Below are positions 45,564 through 63,385 of a stretch of DNA of 64,000 bases, piece by piece (the first letter of the stretch is position 1; each line of letters opens with the position of its first letter). The stretch covers positions 27 through 64,026 of the forward strand of contig CARJCM010000001.1 of the NCBI GenBank assembly GCA_948999435.1, written 5' to 3'. Source of the DNA: an uncultured Bacilli bacterium. GTDB taxonomy: Bacteria > Bacillota_I > Bacilli_A > RF39 > UBA660. The notes beneath the pieces were generated by a model. It ran no database searches and had not been told where the DNA came from. It saw only the letters and a program-made list of their open reading frames with translations. The translations under genes were made by a program, and so were the position numbers.

Positions 45564-48500
45564 ATGATAATCTATATTAGTGAGAGGAAGAGTGTAATGG
45601 ATATTAATAAGATTTTGAGTTTTAGTAAAATTCTAAAATCGAGAATTTTTTATGTAATGTGTGGGGTAATATTTTTAATAGGAATACTGATATATTTTAG
45701 TCATCCTACAAGGAGTTATGCCCTACCAGAGACAGTATTAGTTGATAGAGGCAATGTCTCTGAACAAGTTTTATACTTATCGGATATAACTTATAATAAA
45801 GCACAGGTAGGTTGGGGAACAGTATCTCTTGATAAAACCCAATCAAATACACCATTAATATTAAAGTTAAATGGTTATTCCACAACGTTTAAAAAAGGAA
45901 TATGGGCTCATGCCACCTCAACTGTAGAATATGATATTAGTGAATATAAAGATTATGCATATTTTACGACATATTATGGTTTAAATACTACTGCTGGTAA
46001 TACTGGTAATGGTGTCAAATTTTATATTTATACTTCTGTAGATGGTAAAGAATGGACATTACAAACTGAAGAAAATCCTGATGCTAAAAAAGGTGTAAGC
46101 AATGCTTCTTATGCTAAGATAGACATTAGAGGAGTAAATTATATAAGATTATATGCTCATGATAATGGTTCTAATGCTTCAGACCATGCTGTATGGGGAG
46201 ATAGTAAATTAATCAAAGAAGGTTATAGTGATGATATAACTATACCAGTAAGCGAATTTGATAAAGCAATAAAAGCTAATTATACATCAGGAGCAATAGA
46301 AGATAATTTAAAACTTACATTATTACAAAGAAACTTTATTGATAGAGTAGGACAATTTCAATTAAGAACTTTTGTAGATGCAGACCCTAGAAATATGGAA
46401 ACATTAAAATGGTTCATATATAATGAAGAGGCTTTAAGATTATGGACAGTCGGTGGAAACCCTAATGGTACATATGCTAATTCATTACAAGTACTTAGTA
46501 ATTTATATCATGCGCACAAAGAAGACTTAGAAAATGAAGGTGTAACAGCCAATGGTACTAAATATAAAGATTTATATTTAAGAATGATGTTATCTTTATC
46601 ATTAACTCATTCTTCAAATGTATGTTTATGGATAAATGGAAGTCAATGTTCCAATGCTGTAACTCGATATGAAATATATAAAGATATGCATTTAAACAAT
46701 AAGTTAATGTCAAATTCAATGTTTGAAAGTTATACTGTTGAAGAAATGCGTTGGTTAATGCATAACAACATAGATGATGAAGAAATCAAATGGTTAAGAG
46801 ATTACTCAGCCAAAAGATATCCCAATACAACAGATAGATTTAATCCATATAAATATATAACTTATACCTTTGGATATAGTTATTACAGACCACAATATTA
46901 TAGTCAAGAAAACTATGCTAAATGGGACCAAAAATACAATTTATCAGATTACAATATAACATATAAATCAGGCAATCCAAAGTTATGGATAGTATTTGAA
47001 GAAGGAGCTGTTTGTGGTGGACTTTCAAAAACAGCAGCCAATTTATATGGTGTATGGGGTGTGCCTGCGAGTGTTGTAGGTCAACCTGCTCATGCAGCTT
47101 ATATATATTATTATAATGTTGGTGGCAAAGGAGCTTGGCAATTAGCATACAATGTCGCAGAAACTGCATGGGCTAATACCCAAGGATATTCAAGAATGCC
47201 TAATGACTGGGGAAATCTCAGTAGTGGAATTGTAACAAATACAGGTACAATAAAATCAGCTTCATATTTCTTCTTATCACAAGAAGCTCAAAATGAATAT
47301 GACAAATATGAAAAAGCAGAATTAATAATGATGCTTGAAAGAGTATATAAAGATGATAGTAAGAAGTTAGAAAGAATATATCGTGATACTTTAAAAGAAG
47401 AAATTATAAACTGGGATGCATGGTTAGGGTTAGTAAATTTATATATAAAAGATGGAACTAAAACTGAGGAAGAGTTAATCAGTTTAGCGGAAGAAATAAG
47501 TGCAGTTTATACATATAATCCGCTTCCTATGTATGATTTAACTCGTAGAATCGGACTTAAGATTACATCACCAGAGTATAAAAGTAAATTAATGCTTTTA
47601 CAAAATAAAACTTTACGACAAGCTACAAAAGCAACTGGAGCAAATACATTACAATATAAAGAAGTACCAGTTGTAGCTCAAGCTTTATTAGGTGAGATAA
47701 ATTCTGATATAGCAACATTCTCATTTAGTGGATCATCAGCTAATAAAATTACATTATCAAAACAATTACAAAGTTCACAAGTTAATTGGAGTTATAGTTT
47801 AGATGGAGGTAATACATGGAAAGATGTATATGAACACTCAGTAGAACTAACTCCAGAGGAAGTAGCAAGTATAACAGTAAATAATGATATTAAAGTTCAT
47901 ATTTCAGGTTTACCAATGACTGATGCTAATATTTATACCATAGATATTACTAAAAGGTCATTCCCAACTGGTTTAATTTCTATCAATGATGAAGAAGATA
48001 GAATGATTGGTGTAACTGATGAAATGGAATGGACGCTAAATCCAGCAGATGGATGGAATTCATTTGCTAATACAAATCCAATATTTAGTGGCAATAAAAG
48101 AGTTTATGTAAGAGTAATAGCAAAAGGAACACAAATAGCAAGTGACCCTGTATATTACACATTTAAAGAAAACAACACTAATGATGAAAAATGGTATATT
48201 CAATCTAAATATTTAAGCATTCATGAAGTAAATGCTACTCAAACAGGAAAAGTAGAAAACATGTTAGACGGTAATGTAAATACTTCTTGGCAATCTAAAC
48301 ATGGAATAATGCCAGCATATGTTACAATAAAATTAGACCAACCAAGATACATCTCAGGTCTAGATTATATTCCAGATAAAAATGCTAAGTATATTACTTT
48401 TGTTCCATATGGTCGTGCTAGAAATGTTAAAATTTATGTTAGTATGGATAATCAAAATTGGGAACTAGCTGCCACAAAGAATAATTTAGGAGATAATGAT

Positions 48501-50447
48501 AATCTAAAACATATAGAATTCCCAGTCGCTAAAAAAGCTTTATATGTAAAATTCGAATGCCAAAGTGCTTATGACAGTGAGATTATTGCTTTAGCTGTAT
48601 CGGTTATAAAACTATATGAAAACGTTTTAGTAAATGATACACCAAGAGCAGATGTTAACTATAACATTGTAAATCCAACTAACAAAGATGTTGTCGCTGA
48701 ATTAGTTAATCCTATTAGACCAATAACCGTAACTAATAATGATGGTAAAATGACTCATACATTTACGGAAAATGGCGAGTTTACATTTGAATATGTTGAC
48801 GATAATGGTAATAAAGGAAGTACAACAGCAAAAGTAACATGGATAGATAAAACTGCACCAAAATTAGATGTAACATTTAATACAACAACTATTACTAATG
48901 AAGAAGTTGTAGCAACACTGAAATTTGATAAAAATGTAACAATATTATCAAAAGATGTTCAAATAGCAACCAATCCTGTAGATAATAGTAAGACAATAAC
49001 TTTCTTAGAAAATGATACAATTGAATTAGAGTTTATGGATGATTTAGGAAATATAGGTAAGAAAACTATTTCTGTTAATTGGATAGATAAAACAGCCCCT
49101 ACAGCTGAAGTAGAATATAGTACAATTCATTTAACAGATAAAGCAGTTACAGCCAAATTAAAACCAAGTGAACCAATAACAATTACTAATAATGGTGGTA
49201 GTGATGAATATGTATTTAATGATAATGGCGAATTTACTTTTGAATTTGTTGATAGAGCAGGTAATACTGGTTCGGTAAAAGCGATAGTAACATGGATAGC
49301 AAGAGTACCACATTATGAATTAAAATATTCAACAACTAATCCAACCAGAGATAATGTTGAAGTAACACTAACCCTTGAAGATGGATTTAGAATAGTAAAT
49401 AATGATGCTAATAATAAATATACATTCACTGAAAATGGCACATTTGGCTTCCAATATTTAGATAGTCGAGGTAATGTTGGTCAAATTGAAGCTACAGTAA
49501 CATGGATAGATAGAGTTGCTCCTACTGCCGAATTAAAATACGACAAGACAAAAGACAAAGTAACAGTCACTGTAATAAATCCAAGTGAAGAAATAACATT
49601 TAAAGAAGGTAATGGCGTTTATGAATTCACAGAAAATGGAACTTATGAAATAATCTTCTATGACAAAGTAGGAAATGAAGGAAAAGTTACAGCTATTATC
49701 GATACTATTGGTATAGATGATATCAAACCAGATGTTCCAGAAAAACCTGAAGAACCAGATAAGCCTGATATTCCAGACAATCCTGGTGAAACAGAGAAAC
49801 CAGACGACAAACCTAATACTGATAAACCAAATGAAGGAAATAAACCTGAAAACCCTGATACACCAAATATTCCAAATGAACCTAATAAGCCAGGAAACTC
49901 TGGTAATAATAACAAGCCAAATGATAAACCTGATATAGAAAAACCAGATGATAGTGAATATAAAAACTATACAACAGATAAAGTTGATGTAAAAATCCCA
50001 TCAAATGCAATTAAAGAAGATGGTAAACTAAGTGCTAATGGTTTTGAATTAGATGAAAACTTAAAATATAGCTTTGGTGATTTAAGTGAATATTATGATA
50101 TCTATTTAGAAAATGACAAATATGAAAGAATAGATGTTAATGCAACAAGTCCAATCAAAATAAATATAAAAATAGATAATAATAAAGACTTTATTGGTGT
50201 ATATGAAATAACAGAAGATAATATAATAAAACCTGTTGATTATGTAAAAGATGGCGAAAACATTGAAATATCAGCTAAAAACTTAGGTAAGTTTGTAGTA
50301 TCATACAAGAAGTTAAGCACTGGCAATCCTATACATAATTCTAACAAAGTAACTAGAAAAAATAATTATATTATTTGGATAATGACAGCTATAATGACAA
50401 TACTTATAGGATTATCAGTATATGTATTCAAAAAGAAAAATAAATAA
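45564..50447 (+). CDS. Giant (1627 aa) membrane-anchored multidomain surface protein: NPCBM-like module + putative transglutaminase-like Cys-protease core + F5/8 type C (discoidin) domain + ~6 Ig-like repeats + Pro-rich linker + C-terminal TM anchor
   Basis: N-terminal TM/signal. GWGTVSLDKTQSN...GIWAHATS NPCBM-like. GAVCGG...GVPASVVGQPAHAAYIYY transglutaminase-like. ...MLDGNVNTSWQSK... discoidin. Repeats ...TENGEFTFEYVDDNGN...VTWIDKTAP. PEKPEEPDKPD linker. Terminal IIWIMTAIMTILIGLSVYVFKKK. Confidence 0.7.
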   Translation: MIIYISERKSVMDINKILSFSKILKSRIFYVMCGVIFLIGILIYFSHPTRSYALPETVLVDRGNVSEQVLYLSDITYNKAQVGWGTVSLDKTQSNTPLILKLNGYSTTFKKGIWAHATSTVEYDISEYKDYAYFTTYYGLNTTAGNTGNGVKFYIYTSVDGKEWTLQTEENPDAKKGVSNASYAKIDIRGVNYIRLYAHDNGSNASDHAVWGDSKLIKEGYSDDITIPVSEFDKAIKANYTSGAIEDNLKLTLLQRNFIDRVGQFQLRTFVDADPRNMETLKWFIYNEEALRLWTVGGNPNGTYANSLQVLSNLYHAHKEDLENEGVTANGTKYKDLYLRMMLSLSLTHSSNVCLWINGSQCSNAVTRYEIYKDMHLNNKLMSNSMFESYTVEEMRWLMHNNIDDEEIKWLRDYSAKRYPNTTDRFNPYKYITYTFGYSYYRPQYYSQENYAKWDQKYNLSDYNITYKSGNPKLWIVFEEGAVCGGLSKTAANLYGVWGVPASVVGQPAHAAYIYYYNVGGKGAWQLAYNVAETAWANTQGYSRMPNDWGNLSSGIVTNTGTIKSASYFFLSQEAQNEYDKYEKAELIMMLERVYKDDSKKLERIYRDTLKEEIINWDAWLGLVNLYIKDGTKTEEELISLAEEISAVYTYNPLPMYDLTRRIGLKITSPEYKSKLMLLQNKTLRQATKATGANTLQYKEVPVVAQALLGEINSDIATFSFSGSSANKITLSKQLQSSQVNWSYSLDGGNTWKDVYEHSVELTPEEVASITVNNDIKVHISGLPMTDANIYTIDITKRSFPTGLISINDEEDRMIGVTDEMEWTLNPADGWNSFANTNPIFSGNKRVYVRVIAKGTQIASDPVYYTFKENNTNDEKWYIQSKYLSIHEVNATQTGKVENMLDGNVNTSWQSKHGIMPAYVTIKLDQPRYISGLDYIPDKNAKYITFVPYGRARNVKIYVSMDNQNWELAATKNNLGDNDNLKHIEFPVAKKALYVKFECQSAYDSEIIALAVSVIKLYENVLVNDTPRADVNYNIVNPTNKDVVAELVNPIRPITVTNNDGKMTHTFTENGEFTFEYVDDNGNKGSTTAKVTWIDKTAPKLDVTFNTTTITNEEVVATLKFDKNVTILSKDVQIATNPVDNSKTITFLENDTIELEFMDDLGNIGKKTISVNWIDKTAPTAEVEYSTIHLTDKAVTAKLKPSEPITITNNGGSDEYVFNDNGEFTFEFVDRAGNTGSVKAIVTWIARVPHYELKYSTTNPTRDNVEVTLTLEDGFRIVNNDANNKYTFTENGTFGFQYLDSRGNVGQIEATVTWIDRVAPTAELKYDKTKDKVTVTVINPSEEITFKEGNGVYEFTENGTYEIIFYDKVGNEGKVTAIIDTIGIDDIKPDVPEKPEEPDKPDIPDNPGETEKPDDKPNTDKPNEGNKPENPDTPNIPNEPNKPGNSGNNNKPNDKPDIEKPDDSEYKNYTTDKVDVKIPSNAIKEDGKLSANGFELDENLKYSFGDLSEYYDIYLENDKYERIDVNATSPIKINIKIDNNKDFIGVYEITEDNIIKPVDYVKDGENIEISAKNLGKFVVSYKKLSTGNPIHNSNKVTRKNNYIIWIMTAIMTILIGLSVYVFKKKNK

Positions 50448-50455
50448 AAAAAGAA

Positions 50456-50492
50456 AAGTAGACAAGTTCAAATTACTAAGTCTACTTTTTTA
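50456..50492 (+). terminator. Terminator after the giant surface-protein gene
   Basis: AAAGTAGAC-loop-GTCTACTTTTTT. Confidence 0.7.
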
Positions 50493-50558
50493 TAAAATCA
50501 TATTAATTATTGAAATCTAGAAATAAAAAAAGATTGAAATGCAAATCAATCAATATTA

Positions 50559-50915
50559 TCACTTGCGTGCTCTAATTCTTTTATTAGGAACACAACCATT
50601 GTGAGGAACAGGAGTTTTATCTTTTATCCATCTTACATTAATGCCATTCGATTCTAAGAAATATAAATCTACTAAACCAGTCCTAAGATGACCTTTAACC
50701 TCCACTTCAATAGTATCTATTCCATATATTTTAGCACATTCACAAACCATTGTTGCAATATCCCTCTTCATTTTATCTTTTTCTTCTTTCCTAGCTTCAG
50801 TTCCAACAGAAGTAAACTCTCCGTGGGTATAACAAAGAAGTTGTTTGTCTTTAACTAGTATAGCTATAAATGATGTAAAACCACTTGTTATTCTTAAAAT
50901 TGGTAAACTATTCAT
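50559..50915 (-). CDS. Divergent ribosomal protein S11 paralog (uS11-like, N-terminally truncated)
   Basis: C-terminal ...[12 protein letters not shown]...[25 protein letters not shown] aligns with canonical S11 ...LEVTVKGPGSGRE...[23 protein letters not shown]. The N-terminal basic extension is absent. Confidence 0.6.
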   Translation of the reverse strand: [118 protein letters not shown]

Positions 50916-51026
50916 ATTTTTCTCCTTTAATATATTATTCTACACTTTATTACATAATAGTCAAGTGTCAAACCTTAAAAAGAAAAAACAATTAATTGTA
51001 AAAACATGTTATAATAAATAATAGGA

Positions 51027-51614
51027 GTGATTAAAGTGAAACAAAATAAAATTAAATTAATATTGGCATCATTAATACTAATATTAGCATTATCTTCTTT
51101 GTTAGTATTATATAAAAATAGTTTGAATAAAAATGACTCTGATTTAGATGATAATTTATATTTTAGAGATTTTATTATATATTATGATACAAATAATGAC
51201 GCATGGAAAAGATTCTTTTATCAATTACCATATAGAATAGAACTTGCTAAAACTACTTTTGATATTAAGTTAAATGATTCAAATGAAGAAGTAAGATATT
51301 ATGAATTTTCTAATCATAATTTATATTTTCTTGGTATAGAAGAAATATATCTTAATGAAGATGGTAAAATAATAACTTTAAAAGAAAAACTTGATTATGA
51401 TAAAGATTATTTAATTAAAATGCGAAACAATATGTATTATGATTATGGTATTTTTGATGGAGGAAGTACCGAGTATAATACTATTTACAATGATGCCTTT
51501 AATGAAAAGATAAAAATGTTTACTTGTAATAATATGACAAGTGGCAATAAAGATGTCCATATTGCGTCAATAGATAAAGACATAATGTATGATAGTTGCG
51601 TAAAGCAAAAGTAG
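51027..51614 (+). CDS. Hypothetical secreted/membrane-anchored protein
   Basis: N-terminal hydrophobic signal/anchor. No recognisable domain. Confidence 0.45.
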   Translation: MIKVKQNKIKLILASLILILALSSLLVLYKNSLNKNDSDLDDNLYFRDFIIYYDTNNDAWKRFFYQLPYRIELAKTTFDIKLNDSNEEVRYYEFSNHNLYFLGIEEIYLNEDGKIITLKEKLDYDKDYLIKMRNNMYYDYGIFDGGSTEYNTIYNDAFNEKIKMFTCNNMTSGNKDVHIASIDKDIMYDSCVKQK

Positions 51615-51930
51615 TAATATTGTTTGTTACTATTTTGAGAACTGCACATATTTAAAAAAATAAATAAAATTATAAATTAAGGTTTCTCATAGTTAGAAAC
51701 TTTTTTTATCAATAAAATTATTTAGGATAAAAGTAAAATATATAATAAATTATAATATACAGGAAATAATAAGAAAAAAGAAATATATACATTAAGGTTA
51801 TTATATGATAAAATAAGTCTTAGATAAATTATCTAGAATTAATTAATATTTTGTAAAATTATATCAACACATAATTATTAAGATTAATTTTTTATAAATA
51901 ATTAGAGTAACTAAAAATTAGGAGGGCAAT

Positions 51931-52281
51931 ATGTTTAAATTAGTATCAAAATTTGAACCATCAGGAGACCAACCAGAAGCAATTAAAGAACTTGTAGAAG
52001 GAATTAAAGAAGGCAAGAAAGAGCAAGTTTTACTAGGAGCAACAGGAACTGGTAAGACTTTTACAATTGCTAATGTTATTAAAGAAGTCAATAAACCAAC
52101 TTTAGTTTTAGCGCATAATAAAACTCTAGCTGGACAACTTTATTCAGAATTAAAAGAATTCTTCCCTGATAATCACGTTGAGTATTTTGTTAGTTATTAT
52201 GATTACTCCCAAAAAAGTGACTTATTTAGGCTTAATTTGTGTGATTTAATTTATTTCAAAAATCTAAATAAACCTAGATAA
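51931..52281 (+). pseudogene. uvrB: uvrB 5' fragment (first ~92 codons), interrupted by a mobile-element insertion
   Basis: [92 protein letters not shown] is near-identical to the UvrB N-terminus (Walker A GATGTGKT). Homology is lost after ...YYDY(S)Q at ~52207-52213 and the frame stops at 52281. Confidence 0.8.
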
Positions 52282-52411
52282 AATCAAGTAACAGACATAT
52301 AATATGTGGCCGATTGTAGTCCAAATTCGTACAATACTTTAATAAACATATAATATAATATTGATATGATAATAGTCTTATAATATAATAAGCAAATGAA
52401 AGGGAATTAAA

Positions 52412-53062
52412 ATGAAATATTTAACAATATTAAAGATAAATAGTAAATATAGAGTAGATGCTTTATCAACGATGTTTTGTTGTTCTGAATCAAAAGAAAA
52501 TGATTATCTTGTTAAAGGCGTATTAAAAGTAAAGAATCCAAAAGGACAACTAAGAGAAGATGAAGAAATAGTAGTAATAGAAAATCCAAATAATCTAAGC
52601 AAAAAAGATTTTCTTAAATTATTTAATATAGCTGATTCAGAAAACATCCAAATGATAGTTATTCCTGATTATATATTAGAATGTGGTGAATTAATTCCAT
52701 TTAATGATTATAAAAATAATTATAAAGAACAAGTGAAAATAAAAAGCAAACAAGCTATGATTAAAAGTAAAGCTAGAAAAGATATTGAAAACAATAAAAA
52801 ATTAACTGAAAAGCAGATAAATGAACTATGTGAAATATATCATTGTTCAAAAGATGATAGTATTGATATATTATCCTATTTAGAATATTGCTTATTTTAC
52901 AAAACCAACGGAAAGCTCAATGATTGCTTTAGTCAGATTAGTAATATAAGATATAGAGATTTTGATGAGAAAGAAATTAAAATAAAAGAAAAAGATAGCA
53001 CAAACTTAAATAGAAGGATAGGAATATCAAAAGACATAGCCAAAAAGTACTATTGCCGTTAA
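52412..53062 (+). CDS. Hypothetical protein (element-borne)
   Basis: ORF with RBS GAAAGGGAA. No recognisable domain. Confidence 0.45.
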   Translation: MKYLTILKINSKYRVDALSTMFCCSESKENDYLVKGVLKVKNPKGQLREDEEIVVIENPNNLSKKDFLKLFNIADSENIQMIVIPDYILECGELIPFNDYKNNYKEQVKIKSKQAMIKSKARKDIENNKKLTEKQINELCEIYHCSKDDSIDILSYLEYCLFYKTNGKLNDCFSQISNIRYRDFDEKEIKIKEKDSTNLNRRIGISKDIAKKYYCR

Positions 53063-53151
53063 AAATAAACTGATTAAATTCAGTTTTTTTAATGCTATTA
53101 TACATAGCCATTTTAATTAATGGCAAGAAATGTTAGAGAGGAGATGAAAAA

Positions 53152-53976
53152 TTGAAAGATTGCGAAGTAATAGCAGTTGCAAACCAAAAAGGTGGTGTAG
53201 GAAAAACGACAACGGTCTTTAATTTAGGTGTAGCGCTTGCTAAAGAAGGTAAAAGAGTATTGCTAATTGATGGTGATCCACAAGGAAATCTAACAACGTA
53301 TATGGGATTTGATAGTCCTGATGATTTAAAAGTTACTCTAAGTACAATCATGCTGAATGAAATTAATAATGATGATAGCAATATTAAAGAGTCAGTACTA
53401 CATCATAAGGAAAATATAGATTTAATTCCTTCAGATTTAGAATTGTCATCATTAGAGTTCTCATTAGTAAATGCAATGTGTCGTGAAAGTACAATGAAGA
53501 AATCATTATGTCATTTAAAAAGAGAATATGATTATATTCTAATTGATTGTCAACCATCGCTTGGAATACTAACAATAAATGCCTTAGCTTTTGCTAATAG
53601 AGTCATTATACCAACTCAAGGACATTATTTTTCAGCTAAAGGTATGACAGAATTGATTAAAACGATTAAAAGAATAAATAGGAAAATTAATTCGGATTTA
53701 ATTATTGACGGCGTGTTATTTACTATGATAGATAATAGAACTAATTTATCAAAGGAATTAAAATCTGATTTAATAACTAATTATGGGAGTAAAATTCACT
53801 TTTATAATTCACAAATACCAATGGCAATAAAAACAGCAGAATCAACAGCTTATGCCAAAAGCATATTTGAATATGACAAAAATAGCAAAGTAGCAATAGC
53901 TTATACTTCATTAGCAAAGGAGATATTAGAAGATGAGAGAAGAAGAACAAAAAAAGAAACTGCCATCGTTAGATGA
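53152..53976 (+). CDS. parA: ParA/Soj-family partition ATPase
   Basis: Deviant Walker A ANQKGGVGKTTT. Confidence 0.85.
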   Translation: MKDCEVIAVANQKGGVGKTTTVFNLGVALAKEGKRVLLIDGDPQGNLTTYMGFDSPDDLKVTLSTIMLNEINNDDSNIKESVLHHKENIDLIPSDLELSSLEFSLVNAMCRESTMKKSLCHLKREYDYILIDCQPSLGILTINALAFANRVIIPTQGHYFSAKGMTELIKTIKRINRKINSDLIIDGVLFTMIDNRTNLSKELKSDLITNYGSKIHFYNSQIPMAIKTAESTAYAKSIFEYDKNSKVAIAYTSLAKEILEDERRRTKKETAIVR

Positions 53977-54889
53977 ATTATTTTCTACTGAGGAAGAAAG
54001 GCAAGAAAATAACATAGAGAAAGTTGTAGACATTCCTATTTCAAAAATACAAGACTTTAAAAATCATCCATTTAAAGTTGAAGAAAATGAAGAACTGATT
54101 AGTATGTCTGAAAGCATAGCAAAGTATGGCGTATTAGAACCAGCAGTAGTTAGGCCTTTAAATGATGGAACTTATGAAATGATATCAGGACATAGAAGAA
54201 AAAAAGCAAGTACTATGGTAGGTAAAGAAACTATTAGATGTATTGTAAAAGAATTAAGCGATGATGAAGCTACAATAATAATGGTTGATAGTAATATTCA
54301 ACGTGAGAAAGTGTTACCTTCAGAAAAAGCCTTTGCATATAAAATGAGATTAGAAGCAGAAAAACACCAAGGTAGAAAGATTGAAATATCTTTGTGCCAA
54401 GTTGGCACGAAGTTAAGAAGTGATGCTATTCTAGCTCAACAATTAAATGAAAGTGCAAGAAATATTCATAGATACATTAGATTAACAAACCTTATACCTG
54501 AAATCTTAGAAATGGTGGATAATGGAATAATTGCACTAACACCAGCAGTGGATATCTCTTATTTAGAAATAGATGAGCAAGCAGTATTACTAGATGTAAT
54601 GGGATATAATGGTTGTACACCCAGTGTATCACAAGCTAAGCAAATAAAATATTTAAGTGAAAAAGGAGAATTTGAAGAATCAAAAGTAAAAAAAATATTA
54701 AACCAAGCTAAACCTAATCAAATTGAAAGGATACACCTAGATAAAAAGAAAATTAGCCAAGTACTGCCAAAGTTAAAGGATGACAAAGTAGAAGATTATA
54801 TTTACCAAGCTATTATTTTTTACAATAAACATTTAGAACATCAAAAATTAATAGATAAAAAAGTTAAATTATCCGAACAAGTTAGATAA
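53933..54889 (+). CDS. parB: ParB/Spo0J-like nuclease-domain protein
   Basis: ParB N-terminal GHRRKKAS box, HTH region. Overlaps parA. Confidence 0.75.
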   Translation: MREEEQKKKLPSLDELFSTEEERQENNIEKVVDIPISKIQDFKNHPFKVEENEELISMSESIAKYGVLEPAVVRPLNDGTYEMISGHRRKKASTMVGKETIRCIVKELSDDEATIIMVDSNIQREKVLPSEKAFAYKMRLEAEKHQGRKIEISLCQVGTKLRSDAILAQQLNESARNIHRYIRLTNLIPEILEMVDNGIIALTPAVDISYLEIDEQAVLLDVMGYNGCTPSVSQAKQIKYLSEKGEFEESKVKKILNQAKPNQIERIHLDKKKISQVLPKLKDDKVEDYIYQAIIFYNKHLEHQKLIDKKVKLSEQVR

Positions 54890-55027
54890 TGGGAGTATTA
54901 TTTCCACATCCCTCCTATAACCTCCCTATAATATATATACTAACTGAAAATACTAACTGAAAAAATATTATAGAATTGCAATATAAAATAAAATATATTA
55001 CACTACGTACCAAAAGGAGAGATTTTA

Positions 55028-55780
55028 ATGAAATTAAAATTAATTTTGATATTTGTAAGCAGTTTAATAGTTTTCAGCTTTGTATTTTTATTAGGTACAA
55101 AAAATAATAAACTAAATTCTTTTTATGTAGAAAGGACTGATAATAGTGAACAAATATATGCTTCGGATGGTTATGACATAGAAAAATCAAAAGACATTAC
55201 AACTCAAAATGAATCTAGTGTAATATTAGAACCTGAGCATCAAAATGATCCAACAAAGATTAATCAAAGTAATTCTGATGGAAAAACAGAAAAGAGTGCA
55301 GAATCAAACACAAATGTAAAAAAGAACAATAAGGGTAATGTGAATGTAAAAGAGACAACTACACCAAATGATGATAAAAAGGTTTCTAAGCCAAATAATC
55401 AAAGTACAGAAGTTACAAAAAATGAAGTAACACAAAAGGATGAAAATTTAAAAAACGATTCTACAAATTCAAATGTTTCTAATAATTCGCAAGAAAAGAG
55501 TGTTGTATCAACAAAGTTTTATGAATCCATAACTGGAGGCAAAAAAGAATTTTCTTCAGAGAGTGAAGCTTTTGCACGTGGACAAGAAATAAAATCAAAA
55601 GAGCTTGATTATGTTTTGGATTACAATGAAACACATCCAGAAAATCCTATTAAACCTGATATAAGATATTTCAGAGTTTATCCATCTGTCATAGATGAGA
55701 ATGGAAAATACTGGTATTATTTACACTTTTTCTGTGATAGTGGAGAAGGTAATGATTCAAAACTAAAAAGCAAGTTTTAA
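55028..55780 (+). CDS. Secreted low-complexity protein (signal peptide, S/T/N/K-rich)
   Basis: N-terminal signal/TM. Compositionally biased. Confidence 0.45.
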   Translation: MKLKLILIFVSSLIVFSFVFLLGTKNNKLNSFYVERTDNSEQIYASDGYDIEKSKDITTQNESSVILEPEHQNDPTKINQSNSDGKTEKSAESNTNVKKNNKGNVNVKETTTPNDDKKVSKPNNQSTEVTKNEVTQKDENLKNDSTNSNVSNNSQEKSVVSTKFYESITGGKKEFSSESEAFARGQEIKSKELDYVLDYNETHPENPIKPDIRYFRVYPSVIDENGKYWYYLHFFCDSGEGNDSKLKSKF

Positions 55781-55840
55781 GTAACTCAAAAATGAGTTGC
55801 TTTTTATATCTAAAGAAATATAATTGAAAGGGGAAAGATA

Positions 55841-58579
55841 ATGAAAAATATAGATAGATTTCTAGTTTTAATACTAGGAATTTTTTTATGCTTTACAATG
55901 AAATTAGAAAAAGTAAAGGCAGCAAATATAACTGAAGTTGAAAGTGGTTATATGTATGAAAGGCAAAGTTATGAGGGGGAATATAAATCTCATTTATCTG
56001 ATAAATTTAAGTTTTATTATGTAGAAGGACAAGTTTCATATTGTATAGAACTATTAATGAAACCAGGTAGCCCAATATATGAAGCAGATTGGGAAGCTAC
56101 AAAACTTCCAAATGAGATAAAAGAAAAGCTGATTCTAACTGCTTATTATGGATACACATATCCAGGGCATCAAACAACTGCCTATAGAGCAGCAACACAA
56201 GGTATGATCTGGAAATTATTGATGGGAGAGGGATCATGGATTAAATATAGCACTGATTATTGGGGCAAAGGAAGACTATTAGATGTTTCAAGTGAAGAAG
56301 CAGAAATTGAAAGACTTATAGCTAGTCACTATATTAGACCATCCTTTGATGGAGGAGTTTACAAAGTCCAAAAAGGACAAACTCTTACTTTAACAGATAC
56401 TAATAATGTTTTAACAGACTACAAAATTACTGTTAGTGGCGCTGATTATGAAGTAAATGGAAATAAATTAACAATTAAACCTATTAAAAATGGTACTATT
56501 GATGTGTCTTTTGAAAAGAATGCACCTTATTCAACAAATTATAAGTTGTTTGTTGGAGATGCACAACAAAATATGATTGTACCAGGTACAAGTGATCCAG
56601 TAGAAGCAAGAATTAGAATAAATAGTTTTAGTGGTTCAGTAGAAGGATATAAAACTGATGATGAAACCATAACTCCACAAGGCCAAGCAACTTTAAAAGG
56701 CGCTGAATATGGTGTTTATGAAGCAGCCACAGGAAAATTGATAACAATTGTTACCACTGATGAAAATGGCTATTTCAAAAGTGATAATATACTTGAAAAT
56801 AAAGAGTATTATTTGCAAGAGATAAAACCTAGCTTGGGCTATGAGTTAGACAGAACAAGATATAATTTTGACATGTCTGATAAAGAAACTATAAGAGTGG
56901 ATGTTGTAGAAAAAGTTATAAAAAATTATATCAGTGTTCTTAAGCAATATGAATTTGTTAATGGTAATACAACTTTTCTAAATGCTGAAGAAGGAATAAG
57001 TTTTGAAATACAATATCCAGATGGTAGTCTATTTGATACTATCATAACTGATGAAAATGGTTATGCTTCAGTAAGCCTTCCATATGGAAAATGGAAGTTT
57101 CATCAATTAAATACCCATGATGGATATGAAAAAATTTATGACTTTTATATTAATGTTGATGAAAACACTGAAAAAGAGCAATATTACAATATTCTAAATA
57201 ATGCGTTAAGCGCTTATTTGAAGGTTATTAAAGTTGATGAAGAAACTGGAAAGACTATTGCTATCGCAGATACAACTTTTAAGATATTTAATATAGATAC
57301 AAATCAATATGTATCTCAGTTTGTTTCTGGTAAAATAATTAGTGAATTTAAAACTGATGAGAATGGTATTTTAGTAACTCCTTTAAAATTAGCAGCAGGC
57401 AATTATAGACTAATTGAAGTCTCAAGTCCAACTGGATATCTAATAGACAAAGATGGTTTAAACTTTACTATAGGAAATGATACAAATTATGATTATACCA
57501 CCTATGGAGCTTTTATCACTATAACTTATAAGAATGCGCCAATAAAAGGAAAAATTGAAATATATAAAACTGGGGAAGATATGATTATTAGTGAAGGCGA
57601 GTTTATCTATGGTACTAAAGAATTAAGTGGTGTTATTTTTGAAATTTACGCTGAAGAAGACATTATGTCATCTGATAAGAATCACTTATATTTTAAAAAA
57701 GGAGACTTAGTAGATACAATTACTTCTAATGAGGCAGGATATGCAGTAAGTAAATTGCTTCCACTTGGCAAGTATTATTTTATTGAAGTAGCAACAAATG
57801 ACTCCTATGTTTTAGATACAAATAAGCATTATTTTACTTTAAAAGAAGTTGATGATAAAACAGCTATTGTTTATGAATCATATAGTGCATTAAATTATCT
57901 TAAAAAGGGAACTTTAGAATTTACTAAAACGGATCTAATAACAGGAAATGTTATAGCAGATACCATAATAGAAATTTACACACAGAATAATGAATTAATT
58001 TTTACTGGAAAAACAGATATTAATGGTCAAATTGTTATTAATGATTTAAAAATTGGAAAATACTATATTGTAGAAAAGCAACCCACTACAGGTTATATAC
58101 TAACTTCTGAAAAAGTTTACTTTGAATTAAAAGAAAATGGAGAAGTAATCAAAGCTGAAATGAAAAATATGCCAATAACATCTACTTTAAAGTTTTCCAA
58201 AAAAGATTCTATAACTGGCAATCTGTTACCAAATGCTGTAATTGAGATTTATAAAGATAATGGAGAATTATATGCTACAGCTATTACAAATGAAAATGGA
58301 GAAATCGTCATAGATAATATTCCTTATGGGAAATATTATATTGTTGAAACTCAAGCGCCAATGGGTTATATGATTAATTCAGAGAAACTCTATTTTGAAA
58401 TTAAGAATGATAAAGAAGAGGTAAATGTAACTATGATTGATGAACCAGTAATTATCACAGATGTTCCACAAACATACACAAAAGGTAATTATGTTTTAGA
58501 TATTATTGGATTCACATTATGTATATTAGGAATATTAGGAATAGGAGTTGATCTTCATAAAAAATATAAAAAAAGGTAA
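55841..58579 (+). CDS. Thioester-domain (TED) surface adhesin with CnaB/SpaA-type isopeptide repeats and C-terminal sorting signal/TM
   Basis: Signal peptide. YCIE...TQGMIW (Cys/Gln thioester motifs). Five or more ...GKYYIVE.QAP.GY...SEK.YFE CnaB-like repeats. C-terminal DVPQTYT + hydrophobic + KKYKKR. Confidence 0.65.
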   Translation: MKNIDRFLVLILGIFLCFTMKLEKVKAANITEVESGYMYERQSYEGEYKSHLSDKFKFYYVEGQVSYCIELLMKPGSPIYEADWEATKLPNEIKEKLILTAYYGYTYPGHQTTAYRAATQGMIWKLLMGEGSWIKYSTDYWGKGRLLDVSSEEAEIERLIASHYIRPSFDGGVYKVQKGQTLTLTDTNNVLTDYKITVSGADYEVNGNKLTIKPIKNGTIDVSFEKNAPYSTNYKLFVGDAQQNMIVPGTSDPVEARIRINSFSGSVEGYKTDDETITPQGQATLKGAEYGVYEAATGKLITIVTTDENGYFKSDNILENKEYYLQEIKPSLGYELDRTRYNFDMSDKETIRVDVVEKVIKNYISVLKQYEFVNGNTTFLNAEEGISFEIQYPDGSLFDTIITDENGYASVSLPYGKWKFHQLNTHDGYEKIYDFYINVDENTEKEQYYNILNNALSAYLKVIKVDEETGKTIAIADTTFKIFNIDTNQYVSQFVSGKIISEFKTDENGILVTPLKLAAGNYRLIEVSSPTGYLIDKDGLNFTIGNDTNYDYTTYGAFITITYKNAPIKGKIEIYKTGEDMIISEGEFIYGTKELSGVIFEIYAEEDIMSSDKNHLYFKKGDLVDTITSNEAGYAVSKLLPLGKYYFIEVATNDSYVLDTNKHYFTLKEVDDKTAIVYESYSALNYLKKGTLEFTKTDLITGNVIADTIIEIYTQNNELIFTGKTDINGQIVINDLKIGKYYIVEKQPTTGYILTSEKVYFELKENGEVIKAEMKNMPITSTLKFSKKDSITGNLLPNAVIEIYKDNGELYATAITNENGEIVIDNIPYGKYYIVETQAPMGYMINSEKLYFEIKNDKEEVNVTMIDEPVIITDVPQTYTKGNYVLDIIGFTLCILGILGIGVDLHKKYKKR

Positions 58580-59174
58580 AAAAAATTTTATAAAATTAAG
58601 ATATTTATTACTAATATTAGGGATTTCTACTCTTTTATTAAAAGAAATAACTACATTTATAAAAATATATACGGAGCAGAAATCTATTGAAGTTTTTTAT
58701 AGCGAGCAGGAGAAAATAATAGAAACTCAAGAAATAAAAACACATGAAGAATTAACAACTAGCAAAGATAAACTACTAACTTATAATTATATAGCCATGT
58801 TAAAGATACCCAAAATTAACTTAGAGAGAGGCTTAGTATCACCAACTAGTATCCATAATAATGTAAATGAAAATATACAAATACTAAAAGAATCAGACTA
58901 TCCCGATAAAGAAAACGGAAATTTTATTTTAGCAAGCCACTCAGGTAGAGGCAAAACAGCATACTTTAAATATTTAAACAAACTAGAAATAGATGATAAA
59001 GTATATATTACTTTTAATGGTAAAGAGTATGAGTATAAAGTAATGAACTATTACGAAATTAATAAAAATGGAACTGCTCATATTATAAGAAATGCAGATG
59101 AAACAACATTAACATTAATTACTTGTATATCAAATACAAATAAACAAATAGTGTATATTTGTGAATTAATATAA
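58548..59174 (+). CDS. Sortase (class B-like)
   Basis: Catalytic TLITC motif, His in ASHSG, N-terminal TM. Adjacent to the putative substrate. Confidence 0.7.
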   Translation: MIFIKNIKKGKKNFIKLRYLLLILGISTLLLKEITTFIKIYTEQKSIEVFYSEQEKIIETQEIKTHEELTTSKDKLLTYNYIAMLKIPKINLERGLVSPTSIHNNVNENIQILKESDYPDKENGNFILASHSGRGKTAYFKYLNKLEIDDKVYITFNGKEYEYKVMNYYEINKNGTAHIIRNADETTLTLITCISNTNKQIVYICELI

Positions 59175-59185
59175 AGGAGAATAAA

Positions 59186-59422
59186 ATGGAAATTAAATAT
59201 AATTTAACTCAAGTAACTAAAACTTTAGAAAAGTTATTTACAGCAGGATTTAATACAGATAAACAGATTTTATCATTAAAATTAGAGGATTTAGAAAAAA
59301 TACCAAATTTACAATCGGCAGAGACCTTTATAATTATAAAATTTAAAGAAGCAGTTAAAAATAAACAAATAATTGCTTTCTTAAGTAATTATGGAGAATC
59401 AGGCAATGTCATTTCAAAGTAA
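59186..59422 (+). CDS. Hypothetical small protein
   Basis: ORF with AAGGAG RBS. Confidence 0.4.
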   Translation: MEIKYNLTQVTKTLEKLFTAGFNTDKQILSLKLEDLEKIPNLQSAETFIIIKFKEAVKNKQIIAFLSNYGESGNVISK

Positions 59423-59702
59423 ATTGCCACCGTTAGCTTTAAGATTATCTATAAACAAATATAATACTTTATTATTTATTTTAGATAATAGAAAAGATAA
59501 TATATCACTACAATTAAAAGATAAATATTTAAAATATATTTATTTAATTGATAAAGAATATCTTGAACTAAGACTTTATCCACAAGATGCAATTTATATA
59601 GTTAAACTTTTAATTGATGCCATAAATATAAATAGCAATATAAACTATTATAAAGAATTTCAAAAAAATAGATTAGAATTTATTAAAGGAGATGAATATT
59701 AG
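59391..59702 (+). CDS. Hypothetical small protein
   Basis: ORF only. Confidence 0.35.
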   Translation: MENQAMSFQSKLPPLALRLSINKYNTLLFILDNRKDNISLQLKDKYLKYIYLIDKEYLELRLYPQDAIYIVKLLIDAININSNINYYKEFQKNRLEFIKGDEY

Positions 59703-60051
59703 AATTATGAATAATGTAACTTTAGTTGGTAGATTAGTAAGAGATCCAGAAGTTAAGGAACTAAATGATGGAACTTGTAGAACTTTTATAACCATTGCAA
59801 TATCACGTGATTATCGCAATAGTGAAGGTGAAAGAGTAACTGATTTTATTAATTGTGTTTTATGGAACGGCGTAGCGAACGCTGCAAAAGATTATTGCCA
59901 TCAAGGAGATGTAGTAGGTATTAAAGGAAAATTACAATCTAGAAATTATGAAACAAGTGATAATGAAAAAAAGTATATTCTAGAAGTTGCAGTAGATAAA
60001 ATTACTTTCCTTTCAATAGATAAAATGAAGAATAAAGACAATGAGAGGTAG
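59692..60051 (+). CDS. ssb: Single-stranded DNA-binding protein (element-borne, short form)
   Basis: OB-fold SSB N-terminus NVTLVGRLVRDPEVKELNDGTCRTFITIA...W. Confidence 0.8.
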   Translation: MNIRIMNNVTLVGRLVRDPEVKELNDGTCRTFITIAISRDYRNSEGERVTDFINCVLWNGVANAAKDYCHQGDVVGIKGKLQSRNYETSDNEKKYILEVAVDKITFLSIDKMKNKDNER

Positions 60052-60060
60052 TAAATATTT

Positions 60061-60402
60061 ATGAATAATATAAAAGTTAGTGAAAAATTATATAAAAAAA
60101 TGGAATTAGAGTATAATGATTTTATTTTGGATTTAAAGAAACAAAGTAAAGAAAAAATTTTAGACAGTGCTTATGAGAAAATATTTAAAGAAGAAATGTT
60201 AAGTTTATTAATTCCTGATAATAGAGAATATAGTGAAGAAGAAATACAAGTATTATCTAAAATTAAAAAGCCATTAGATTTTTTATATAGAGAATGGCTA
60301 GATTTAGATATAAGTATAAATGATTTGCTTATGGAGAGTGTAGATTTAATACTATATGAAGAAAGTCGTAGAATGAAATCTAAAAATAAAGAAAGTAGGT
60401 AA
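60061..60402 (+). CDS. Hypothetical protein
   Basis: ORF only. Confidence 0.4.
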   Translation: MNNIKVSEKLYKKMELEYNDFILDLKKQSKEKILDSAYEKIFKEEMLSLLIPDNREYSEEEIQVLSKIKKPLDFLYREWLDLDISINDLLMESVDLILYEESRRMKSKNKESR

Positions 60403-60406
60403 TAAA

Positions 60407-61351
60407 ATGCCTTATTTTTCAACAGAAGCAATTAATAGTGTTAGGAATTTAGATTTATTAACATATTTAAGAAATTATGAACCTGAAGAATTGGTAAAGA
60501 TTTGTAGAGGCAATTATTGTACAAAAACACATGATAGTTTAAAAATAAGTAATGGAATGTGGTATTGGTTTTCTAGAGGAATTGGAGGAAAAAGTGCGTT
60601 GGATTATCTTGTAAAAGTAAGAGACTACTCCTTTACTGAAGCAGTAGAAAAAATATTAAAAGAATGCGATATAGATAATATTCAAAAAGTTGAGTATATA
60701 GACAAGAATGAAGATAGAGAATTTGAATTGCCAGAAAGAGCTTCAAATAATTATACAGCAATAAAATATTTAACTAATAGAGGGATAGATAAAGAAATCA
60801 TAAATGAGTGTATCAATAAGGGATTAATATATCAAGATATAGACAACAATGTAGTATTTGTGGGATATGATCAAAATAATATAGCTAAATATGCTAGTAT
60901 AAGAACTACAACTAATAGGAGATTTATGTATGAAGCATATAAAAGCAATAAAGCTTTTTCATTTCAGTTAGCCAATATAAAAGAATCAGAAAGTGTCCAT
61001 ATTTTTGAAAGCGCTATTGATCTTTTATCATATGCAACATTAGTGAAGATGAGTAATAAAAACTTAAATACAAATTTAATTTCTTTATCAGGAGTGTATC
61101 AACCACCAGAACAAATTGAAGATACTTTAATACCAATAGCACTAAATTATTATCTAAATATACATCCAAAAACAAAAAGAATTTTTTTACATTTAGATAA
61201 TGATTATACAGGAAAAAAGGCAAGTAATGCTTTAAGCTGTGTGATTCCAAAACGTTTTGAAGTCATTGATAGTCCACCACCAAATGGTAAAGATTACAAT
61301 GATTTTTTGTGTTATATAATAAATAAAAATTTAGATAAAGGAGAAAGATAA
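60407..61351 (+). CDS. DUF3991 + Toprim domain protein (conjugative-element primase-like)
   Basis: N-terminal CxxxxC...H region. Toprim acidic motifs (IFESAIDLLS ... LHLDNDYTG). Confidence 0.65.
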   Translation: MPYFSTEAINSVRNLDLLTYLRNYEPEELVKICRGNYCTKTHDSLKISNGMWYWFSRGIGGKSALDYLVKVRDYSFTEAVEKILKECDIDNIQKVEYIDKNEDREFELPERASNNYTAIKYLTNRGIDKEIINECINKGLIYQDIDNNVVFVGYDQNNIAKYASIRTTTNRRFMYEAYKSNKAFSFQLANIKESESVHIFESAIDLLSYATLVKMSNKNLNTNLISLSGVYQPPEQIEDTLIPIALNYYLNIHPKTKRIFLHLDNDYTGKKASNALSCVIPKRFEVIDSPPPNGKDYNDFLCYIINKNLDKGER

Positions 61352-61352
61352 A

Positions 61353-61832
61353 ATGTTAAATAATATAAAAATAGGTGAAGTAATTAGGTATTTTAGAATG
61401 AAAAATAATATGTCTCAAAGAGAGCTTGCTAATATTGTTGGAATTGATAGAACAGAAATAAGTAAGATAGAAAACAATATTAGAAAGACAATTAATGATA
61501 GCGTATTAAAAAGAATTTGTAATGTTTTAAATATAAATTATATCAAACTTGTGGAAAAGTCAGATATAAATAATAAAGAAAATAATTCTAAAAAATATGA
61601 AATAATAATTACAGAAACATTTAAAACAAAGTATATAGTTTCAGCTAAAGATGAACAATCAGCAGTTGGTTTTATTAATGATTTTTTTAAAGCAGCAGAT
61701 GTTTTGGAATGTGAAATAAGAAAAGAAAGTGAATCTTTTTCTGATGTTGATGTAAAAGAAATAAAGGAAAAACATTGCAGTTTGGAAGAAAAAAATTATA
61801 TTTTATTTGATGAAGCAGATATTTTACTATAA
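61353..61832 (+). CDS. XRE-family HTH transcriptional regulator
   Basis: MSQRELANIVGIDRTEISKIENN HTH_3 motif. Confidence 0.8.
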   Translation: MLNNIKIGEVIRYFRMKNNMSQRELANIVGIDRTEISKIENNIRKTINDSVLKRICNVLNINYIKLVEKSDINNKENNSKKYEIIITETFKTKYIVSAKDEQSAVGFINDFFKAADVLECEIRKESESFSDVDVKEIKEKHCSLEEKNYILFDEADILL

Positions 61833-62045
61833 AAATTATAATAATGTGCTGTATTAGCAAGCACTGAATAATTACTCCCGTAATTATTCTCTTGTTACCC
61901 AGTGTAACTTAAAATATATATTAAAATAATTAAACGTATGATATAATTGTCATTGGGAAGTAATATCAAGATTGTACCACTAGAGTGTAGGAATTTATCA
62001 GAACAATCTTTTTATTGTAAATGAGTTTTAACTCATAGTTAAGTG

Positions 62046-62071
62046 TTAGCACTAATGTGCTAATTTTTTTT
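62046..62071 (+). terminator. Terminator after the XRE gene (TTAGCAC-taat-GTGCTAA + T8)
   Basis: Perfect 7-bp stem followed by a T-run. Confidence 0.65.
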
Positions 62072-62166
62072 ATTAGAAAGGATTGATATCATGGAAGAAA
62101 TATTTTTCTTAATAGGAGGATTAAGTGTAATATGTATTATGAATTGTTTTCAAATAAATAAAATAA

Positions 62167-62535
62167 ATGCATTTATTAAATCAAATAAGAAAGAAACAAA
62201 AGATAATGAGAGCTAGAAATATAAAAAAGCAAATATGGATTAATAAGGAAGAAGATTATATCTTAAAAGATAAAGCTGCAAGGGTAGGATTGTGTGAAGC
62301 AGAGTTAATACGGAATTTGATTTTAGGTTTTGAGCCTAAAGAGAAACCAGATAATAGATTTTATGAAGTTATGAGAGAGTTAAGAGCTATAGGAAACAAT
62401 ATAAATCAAATAGCAAGAAGAGCAAATACATTAAATAATATAGATTGTGAATTGTATAAAACTGAAGCTATTAAATGGAATAACTTTATGTTAGATATAA
62501 AAAAAGAGTTTCTTCTTCCAAAAGAAATTAAATGA
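62167..62535 (+). CDS. mobC: MobC-family relaxosome accessory protein (ribbon-helix-helix)
   Basis: RARNIKKQIWINKEEDYILKDKAARVGLCEAELIRNLILG matches MobC. The true start is probably MRARN at ~62206. Confidence 0.7.
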   Translation: MHLLNQIRKKQKIMRARNIKKQIWINKEEDYILKDKAARVGLCEAELIRNLILGFEPKEKPDNRFYEVMRELRAIGNNINQIARRANTLNNIDCELYKTEAIKWNNFMLDIKKEFLLPKEIK

Positions 62536-62592
62536 TATATACATTATTAGAAGTTAGTGATATAATATACAATAAATTTGAGGTGAAATAAT

Positions 62593-62841
62593 ATGAGTTG
62601 GGAAGTTACAAATAAAAAAAGCATAAAATGTTTATGTGGTAAAGGAAGTATTGTTCAGGAGACAATAGGTGATGATTGGAATAGACATAAAGATAAAGAA
62701 CCTATTATAGAATGTGAAGAATGTTCCCAAAAATATAAAATTGATTCAGAATATATTTGTCCAAAGCCTTACCATGATTATACAAATTATTATTGTGTTG
62801 AAAAAGAAAATCCAAGTAAAAAAATAACGTTGGATTTATAA
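62593..62841 (+). CDS. Small Cys-rich (zinc-ribbon-like) protein
   Basis: CLCGKG...CEECSQ...CPKP...C. Confidence 0.4.
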   Translation: MSWEVTNKKSIKCLCGKGSIVQETIGDDWNRHKDKEPIIECEECSQKYKIDSEYICPKPYHDYTNYYCVEKENPSKKITLDL

Positions 62842-62854
62842 TAGGAGATAATAA

Positions 62855-63379: not shown

Positions 63380-63385
63380 AAAGGG

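Follow-up and report, generated by a model that had tools for sequence, protein, structure and literature searches.

Ribosomal proteins are almost always present in a single copy and inherited vertically, and phages and other mobile elements encode ribosomal proteins that travel horizontally. The zinc (Zn)-independent paralogues of L31, L33, L36, S14 and S18 are extra, diverged copies encoded away from the main ribosomal operons, which differ from their counterparts by the cysteine motif of the Zn ribbon, a structure that the small-subunit protein uS11 does not have; the highly diverged bacterial ribosomal-protein paralogues treated by Yutin et al. 2012 (PMC3353972) are all Zn-motif proteins. 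The main text of that article contains no occurrence of 'S11' (0 occurrences), in line with the statement of the initial annotation of the locus studied here that an S11 paralogue is not a classical case, and full-text searches of the literature turned up no account of any diverged S11 paralogue in bacteria. Here we describe such a protein, S11L, encoded at positions 50559..50915 on the minus strand of a 64,000-nucleotide (nt) stretch of DNA (the window) from contig CARJCM010000001.1, assembly GCA_948999435.1, of an uncultured Bacilli bacterium of the mouse gut. S11L is a diverged homologue of uS11 that exists in addition to the canonical gene, is rare, has passed between genera and is under purifying selection, and it has kept the fold and the C-terminal tail of uS11 while shedding most of the elements by which uS11 contacts ribosomal RNA (rRNA). 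We tentatively read it as a uS11 mimic that would act on the enzyme YbeY and/or on the platform of the immature 30S particle, rather than as a stoichiometric ribosomal protein.

Two described systems are close enough for a detailed comparison. Canonical uS11 (rpsK; PF00411, TIGR03632) is near-universal, vertically inherited and encoded in a rpsM-rpsK-(rpsD)-rpoA cluster, whereas S11L is rare, transferred and stands alone in a variable slot of the chromosome. Both share the alpha/beta fold, the TPxPHNGCxPxKRxR tail and the (I/V)EVxVKG strand, but the basic N-terminal extension, the GFKGSRKxTPxAA loop, the GPGxGRE turn and the basic body belong to the canonical protein only. The second system is uS11 as a substrate of YbeY, with which S11L has in common a globular S11 domain, the P-H-N-G kink motif and an aromatic residue in strand 1. 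According to two preprints of August 2026, YbeY turns N119 of uS11 (the Asn of PHNG) into isoaspartate; in one of them (10.64898/2026.08.26.747345) the globular domain of uS11 lies on the YbeY beta-sheet, with contacts at S26, F27 and N28, and the tail residues N119, C121 and R122 lie in the catalytic cleft. The first YbeY preprint (10.64898/2026.08.26.747336) reports that no reaction takes place on a bare C-terminal peptide, since both the N-G pair and the globular domain are required, that G120A nearly abolishes the reaction of the E. coli enzyme, with P117A, H118A, C121A and R122A being tolerated, and that loss of YbeY across bacteria accompanies loss of the N-G pair; it also stresses the electrostatic attraction between acidic YbeY and basic uS11. 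Neither 'paralog' nor 'duplicat' occurs in its main text (0 occurrences).

The gene and its signals are laid out as follows (nucleotide positions are those of the window, residue numbers those of S11L):

50559..50915, minus strand: S11L coding sequence, an intact open reading frame (ORF) of 118 amino acids (aa), with its ATG start at 50915-50913
Residues 6-11, 15-22 and 25-33 (strands), 39-64 (helix), 68-75 (strand), 78-89 (helices) and 93-99 (strand): secondary structure in the AlphaFold2 model
Residues 101-118: C-terminal tail (18 residues)
50922..50928, minus strand: Shine-Dalgarno-like AAAGGAG, 6 nt before the ATG, read from the sequence
50937..50971, minus strand: overlapping promoter-like sites, TTGACT-16-TAGAAT (50964-50937) and TTGACA-16-TAAAGT (50971-50944)
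50544..51023, minus strand: 480-bp S11L cassette (the ORF plus 15 bp downstream and 108 bp upstream), common to a genome of another genus (G626) at 89.4% nt identity

The homology of S11L to S11 is far beyond chance, and the alpha/beta fold of S11 is kept, so that the proposal of a diverged uS11 homologue in the initial annotation is borne out by profile, sequence and structure comparisons. The Pfam model PF00411 (Ribosomal_S11) scores 32.9 bits against a gathering cut-off of 25.1 (E 9.5e-8), with residues 43-115 aligned to profile positions 38-110. The NCBIfam equivalog models for uS11 also recognize the protein (E 2e-11 and 1e-10), with a match limited to residues 53-115 and scores far below their cut-offs (NF003698, 44.3 bits, cut-off 111, and TIGR03632, 42 bits, cut-off 154.5, in the order of the E values). 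A phmmer search of S11L against PDB sequences matched 65 distinct sequences, of which the best 60 are all uS11. An AlphaFold2 model built on an alignment that included canonical S11 has a pLDDT (predicted local distance difference test) of 89.7 and the strand and helix order of uS11; the top 50 Foldseek matches of this model are all ribosome or small-subunit-processome entries (E from 1e-8, template modelling score about 0.63), and those of their chains that are also present among the phmmer matches are uS11. When the model was built from S11L-type rows only, the pLDDT was 86.2 and VIA-align ranks 1-8 were uS11 chains (Z 10.4-8.7), with RNase-H-like folds ranking below them (Z 8.4 or less). 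In the ESM Atlas, the clusters nearest to S11L are organellar uS11 (0.85-0.87, under the 0.9 mark) and add nothing beyond S11 homology.

The pattern of what S11L has kept and what it has lost is uneven along the protein. The two motifs by which it was initially recognized are both there: IEVEVKG at residues 69-75, corresponding to the E-V-x-V-K-G block, and the TPVPHNGC tail at 101-118, which is of the TPxPHNGCRPxKRRR type with Val in place of Arg after the Cys. Across 12 rows of the S11L family, G75, L87, T101, P104 and N106 are invariant (12/12), and L7, I9, F13, A61, P102 and H105 nearly so; conservation is thus focused on the TPxPHN of the tail and on strand 1. The tail Asn-Gly pair, N106-G107, is preceded by P104-H105. 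Multiple alignment also confirms the absence of the basic N-terminal extension and the very diverged middle that had been described: in the alignment, S11L begins 19 columns later than the canonical uS11 of the host, 17 other residues inside the 26-residue helix 39-64 take the place of the GFKGSRKxTPxAA loop, and the GPGxGRE turn has become GHLRTGL. The body of S11L has a net charge of +1, compared with +10 to +13 in four canonical uS11 proteins, while its last 20 residues carry +5. A CxxC pair is found in neither S11L nor canonical uS11. Compared with the alternative L31, L33, L36, S14 and S18 proteins, S11L is much rarer, is mobile between genera and has lost elements that contact rRNA.

S11L is an extra copy, and the ribosome is supplied by the canonical rpsK of the ribosomal operon. 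This gene, whose presence elsewhere in the genome the initial annotation asked to have confirmed, lies on contig C16 of the assembly that carries S11L (hereafter G000; 88.7% complete, with 1.29 Mb in 86 contigs), scores 145 bits and stands within infA-rpsM-rpsK-rpoA-rplQ, so S11L is not the sole S11 gene; S11L itself is, as annotated, a solo gene on the minus strand outside the ribosomal operon. The two proteins are 25% identical in the multiple alignment, and BLASTP aligns residues 87-115 only. Searches with PF01165 and PF01084 for a second bS21 or bS18, which might co-vary as a platform partner, found one of each in G000 and no second copy. A phylogeny was computed from 34 chosen rows, namely 15 S11L-type proteins, 8 other short, loop-less S11-like proteins and 11 canonical ones; the remaining matches of the profile search (fragments, chimeras and redundant canonical S11) were left out. 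The 15 S11L-type rows, together with P0057, fall on one side of a branch 0.81 long with support 100/98, forming a clan apart from the canonical rows, which group at 95/86 with the host's own uS11 beside its relatives. Since the S11L clan is split off from canonical uS11 in this tree, S11L is no recent duplicate, and an origin by recent duplication of rpsK within the genome is ruled out by the tree and the 25% identity. S11L belongs to a rare and old side branch of uS11. Public data contain a further group of short uS11-like proteins, 112-129 aa long, that are also without the GFKGSRK loop (P0013, P0020, P0023, P0031, P0106, P0115 and P0130); these have a turn resembling GPGxGRE, and the tree places them with canonical uS11 rather than S11L.

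Whole-genome searches were made with an S11L profile (A3) at E<=1e-17, a threshold that canonical S11 does not pass (59 bits at best), in genome samples that overlap one another. S11L was found in 2 of 44 genomes of its own genus (G000 and the sister genome G059), in 2 of 401 genomes of the family sample (G000 and G626, which belongs to another genus), in 1 of 18 genomes of the genus of G626, and in 1 of 399 genomes of both the class and the phylum sample (G000 only in each), which amounts to 3 genomes across the samples searched. A word-index search of a collection of 5.8 billion clusters returned 6 clusters at 78-98% identity with 47 member sequences, one of which is publicly annotated as 'ribosomal protein S11', and the DNA is present in mouse-gut sequencing runs from 13 studies. 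When 1.84 billion representatives were searched exhaustively with a profile, 584 matched at E<=0.001 and 5 at E<=1e-10; most of the listed matches read as canonical S11 or as chimeric fragments, with an alignment confined to the C-terminal half. Some ten others lack the loop but are complete proteins of 112-125 aa that are S11L-like from residue 1 (P0007-P0012, P0014, P0054, P0022 and P0057), and relatives at 27-37% identity still keep the length, the start and the tail. No relatives were found in the genome contigs and viral contigs (IMG/VR) searched, nor, with the queries A1 and P0011, in metagenome contigs.

Phage and other mobile-element ribosomal proteins resemble S11L in being ribosomal-protein homologues that move horizontally, but no S11L was found in IMG/VR contigs or among the matches in a phage collection and PLSDB, and there is no PHROGs match. 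A phage origin was rejected: none of the 14 matches in the phage collection showed an S11L, the one inspected in detail (H1) being a piece of bacterial DNA with rpsK-rpsD-rpoA-rplQ and the remaining 13 having a query coverage of 86% or less and an identity of 48% or less. One human faecal record that is catalogued as 'Bacteriophage sp.' (MT837602.1:1-3869, L046) carries canonical rpsK-rpsD-rpoA-rplQ plus an ABC ATPase and looks bacterial. A plasmid origin was likewise rejected, the 55 PLSDB matches being annotated rpsK genes or unannotated places on chromosome-like records; these cover the C-terminal half of S11L only, except for one Aerococcus rpsK (93% of the query, 28% identity). Neither PHROGs nor PADLOC gave any match for S11L or its neighbours.

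Comparison of G000 with G626 indicates that a small cassette, consisting of the gene and its promoter-like region, has moved horizontally between genera. The 480-bp cassette is 89.4% identical and homology ends at both of its edges, whereas the rpsM-rpsK-rpoA region of the same two genomes is only 73% identical; the synonymous rate (dS) is 0.27 for S11L and 0.91 for rpsK; and the chromosomal surroundings differ, with galE on one side of S11L in G626 and a transposase fragment on the other. The transfer is argued from these three observations taken together (cassette versus operon identity, lower dS and differing contexts). No terminal repeats were seen at the cassette edges in the comparison of G000 and G626. 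The transposase-like fragment of G626 (179 aa, L037:8622-9161) lies directly downstream of S11L, and a tRNA-like stretch is found about 5 kb off.

The ORF has 118 aa in all three S11L-bearing genomes, and the ratios of non-synonymous to synonymous rates (dN/dS) among the three DNA copies are 0.25, 0.31 and 0.43. Between G000 and G059, the dN of S11L is 0.059 as against 0.006-0.008 in the flanking genes, and its dS is about twice theirs. These rates amount to selection that is purifying but relaxed, since dN is 7-10 times that of the neighbours, with exchange of alleles being possible.

The start codon of S11L is fixed by the ribosome-binding site and the conserved MNxLP at the N-terminus. The Shine-Dalgarno-like site is conserved in G626 and reads AAAAGAG in G059. 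Upstream, both sigma-70-like sites match the consensus at 10 of 12 positions, although such sites are in no excess here (5 found, 4.9 expected in shuffles). The promoter-like stretch is present in G626 as well and is partly deleted in G059, where a 47-nt deletion (L027:10847-10930, compared with window 50916-51023) has removed the -35-like hexamers and left a TATAAT. A scan for terminator-like sites near the gene found none, and no Rfam element matched at E<=1 in 50000-52500. Contigs from all four RNA libraries compared, which come from four mouse-gut studies, contain pieces of S11L at 95-100% identity (50561-50872, 50705-50944, 50407-50653 and 50574-50883), a weak hint of expression. S11L is an intact accessory gene that is probably expressed.

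The link to YbeY comes from what the protein has retained. S11L has the signature of a YbeY substrate, that is, the Asn-Gly pair (N106-G107) at the tail kink and a folded S11 body, and hence both parts that YbeY requires in uS11, the globular fold and the TPxPHNG tail, the latter being also the occupant of the platform groove of 16S rRNA. F13 of S11L aligns with the residue that we take to be F27 of uS11, presuming the E. coli numbering. Two differences from the substrate uS11 are that the body of S11L lacks the basic charge and that Val replaces the Arg after the Cys, though the first YbeY preprint reports R122A to be tolerated in E. coli (10.64898/2026.08.26.747336).

A ybeY gene was found in 43 of 43 other genomes of the genus, including G059, and also in G626, and the YbeY proteins of G059 and G046, another sister genome, are identical (148 aa). 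The complex of this YbeY with S11L was predicted with 'weak support', at a score of 0.38 (runs 0.38, 0.34 and 0.45) while the highest score among 3 controls was 0.02; the contacts coincide between runs to 85% or more, and the partner pLDDT is at least 78. Of 157 solved complexes, 116 attain the mark used for such scores, as do 2 of 215 mismatches, counts that are only a rough guide here as custom alignments were used, and passes at scores of 0.60 or under came from 18 of the 157 solved complexes and from both of the passing mismatches. The PDB copy that was searched contains no YbeY-uS11 complex.

The surroundings of S11L were compared between G000 and the two sister genomes G046 and G059. The relevant stretches are the following:

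45564-50447, plus strand: surface protein of 1627 aa, composed of NPCBM and F5/8 type C modules, Ig-like repeats and a linker rich in Pro, Asn and Lys, and anchored in the membrane by its C-terminus
Window 50448-51930, the slot in G000: S11L and a 195-aa ORF
The slot in G059: S11L and a HAD-type hydrolase, followed by an intact uvrB
The slot in G046: a 554-aa gene, with S11L absent
Window 51931-64000, continued on G000:C30:1-7351 (L017): conjugative or mobilisable integrative element that interrupts uvrB at about codon 94

S11L is convergent with the surface-protein gene and divergent from the 195-aa ORF (51027-51614, plus strand; no family match). The placement between a surface-protein gene and uvrB given by the initial annotation holds on the surface-gene side; on the other side the 195-aa ORF intervenes, and the 'uvrB' of the window is only a displaced 5' remnant (codons 2-94) that a conjugative element has severed on integrating. 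Across the three sister genomes, whose flanks are about 95% identical, the slot that separates uvrB from the surface gene is hypervariable (window 50448-51930, set against L026:8400-10350 and L027:10874-11840), and S11L is a solo gene with no conserved neighbour across three contexts. G046 and G059 have the surface protein at 95-96% conservation, and contig C28 carries a paralogous stretch that has diverged; a homologue of the 195-aa ORF, 57% identical, is found elsewhere in G046, adjoining polA. Contamination or mis-binning is ruled out for S11L, its flanks being host DNA that is 95-96% identical to two sister genomes.

The conjugative element begins after the uvrB remnant, at about 52212. 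Its left part encodes ParA, ParB, a 912-aa SpaA/thioester adhesin, a sortase, SSB, DUF3848, DUF3991-Toprim, a helix-turn-helix protein, NikA and a relaxase, and its right end on contig C30 a sigma-like protein, MazF and two tyrosine integrases, followed by a full-length uvrB. The uvrB of C30 is 84-86% identical to that of G046 over the first 300 nt and 92-100% over the rest, and the remnant in the window is 98-99% identical to the G046 gene over the first 200 nt; this split of identity along the gene indicates that the element inserted in uvrB and brought a replacement 5' end (the first ~290 nt), so that uvrB stays whole. That S11L is cargo of this adjoining element is ruled out: it lies on the chromosomal side of the junction, and in G059 it occupies the same place beside an intact uvrB with no element.

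The best explanation that we can offer, short of an even chance and put forward as such, is that S11L mimics uS11 towards YbeY and/or the immature 30S platform. It would dock on YbeY, possibly being isoaspartylated itself, or it would occupy the uS11 site of immature 30S particles, with or instead of docking on YbeY, and could thereby tune or perturb the maturation of the small subunit; binding to either partner and any effect on maturation are inferred here from the pattern of retention. We prefer this because the family keeps what YbeY and the pre-30S particle read and sheds what anchors uS11 in the mature subunit, and the loss of loop, extension and charge, together with rarity and mobility, leans towards mimicry or moonlighting rather than a stoichiometric ribosomal role. 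Several points weigh against it. (i) The retained tail is the most conserved rRNA-binding part of uS11, so that the pattern also fits a protein that enters ribosomes. (ii) A subclade (P0011, P0012, P0014 and P0054) has L, S or A, not G, after the invariant Asn, and as uS11 with G120A is hardly processed by the E. coli enzyme, isoaspartylation cannot be what all members of the family have as their function. (iii) The near-neutral body may weaken binding to YbeY, and, S11L being a homologue of the true partner, the weak pass of the predicted complex may reflect likeness only. (iv) No ybeY was found in G000 (88.7% complete), and a gap in the assembly is the most likely reason: the syntenic phoH/ybeY/dgkA/era-type block (compared with L045, G046:C5:46000-55162) is unassembled in G000, where contig C39 stops at its edge, and all other genomes of the genus have the gene. 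(v) The RNA-library contigs with S11L are short and shallow, and carry-over of DNA is possible; and (vi) the dN of S11L exceeds that of the flanking genes by the 7-10 times given above. A more specific and doubtful version would make S11L a horizontally spreading decoy, or a second client of YbeY, reduced from uS11 to the body that the enzyme recognizes and the PHNG tail. It would contend with newly made uS11 either for YbeY or for the groove at the pre-30S platform, and so act as a switch on small-subunit maturation.

Other explanations account for part of the same observations. S11L could be a true alternative ribosomal protein that, in certain circumstances, takes the place of uS11 in all ribosomes or in a part of them (for specialised ribosomes, or for resistance to a compound binding at the platform or E site), as would suit the uS11 fold, the intact TPVPHNGC...KRIRARK tail with its net +5, the purifying selection, the promoter-like site and ribosome-binding site of its own and the cluster member annotated as 'ribosomal protein S11'; we consider this unlikely, given a body charge of +1 in place of +10 to +13, the missing N-terminal extension, GFKGSRKxTPxAA loop and GPGxGRE turn, scores far under the NCBIfam equivalog cut-offs, an occurrence in 3 genomes only of the samples searched with mobility between genera, the single bS21 and bS18 of G000 and the raised non-synonymous rate. 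It is about as improbable that S11L is an S11-derived RNA- or protein-binding factor whose target has nothing to do with YbeY or the 30S platform, such as an mRNA regulator or a partner of some other mobile-element function. Such a role would be compatible with a gene that stands alone, lacks a conserved neighbour in each of three contexts and comes from an old and diverse family in which one subclade does not keep the N-G pair, but the only strongly conserved block is the very tail motif that serves both YbeY and the rRNA groove in uS11, and in the absence of PHROGs or PADLOC matches and of an Rfam element alongside, nothing indicates another target. Least expected, to our mind, is a relic with little or no function, in which case a copy of S11 would have been captured and would now be decaying while it hitch-hikes in variable slots of the chromosome. 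The very rare and patchy occurrence, a dN above that of the neighbours, the 47-nt deletion in the promoter region of G059, the variable slot and the transposase fragment adjoining the gene in G626 are what a relic might leave; decay is, however, hard to reconcile with a 118-aa ORF intact in all three genomes at dN/dS 0.25-0.43, with relatives down to 27-37% identity that keep length, start and tail, with AlphaFold2 models at pLDDT 86-90 and with pieces in RNA libraries.

The S11L family is thus rare, mobile and under purifying selection, and has shed most of the rRNA-contact elements of uS11 while keeping the tail motif in which, according to the two preprints, an enzymatic and near-universal conversion to isoaspartate takes place. 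If S11L enters ribosomes, it would show how little of uS11 the platform requires. If it were a decoy or second client, it would be the first non-uS11 protein known to use the universally conserved isoaspartylation step of YbeY, and no diverged family of ribosomal-protein paralogues outside the Zn type would have had a regulatory role before it. If, as we tentatively prefer, S11L binds YbeY or the pre-30S particle as a mimic, the family would provide a natural tool for studying the recognition, modification and delivery of uS11, and would illustrate how ribosome biogenesis can be the target of a mobile gene.

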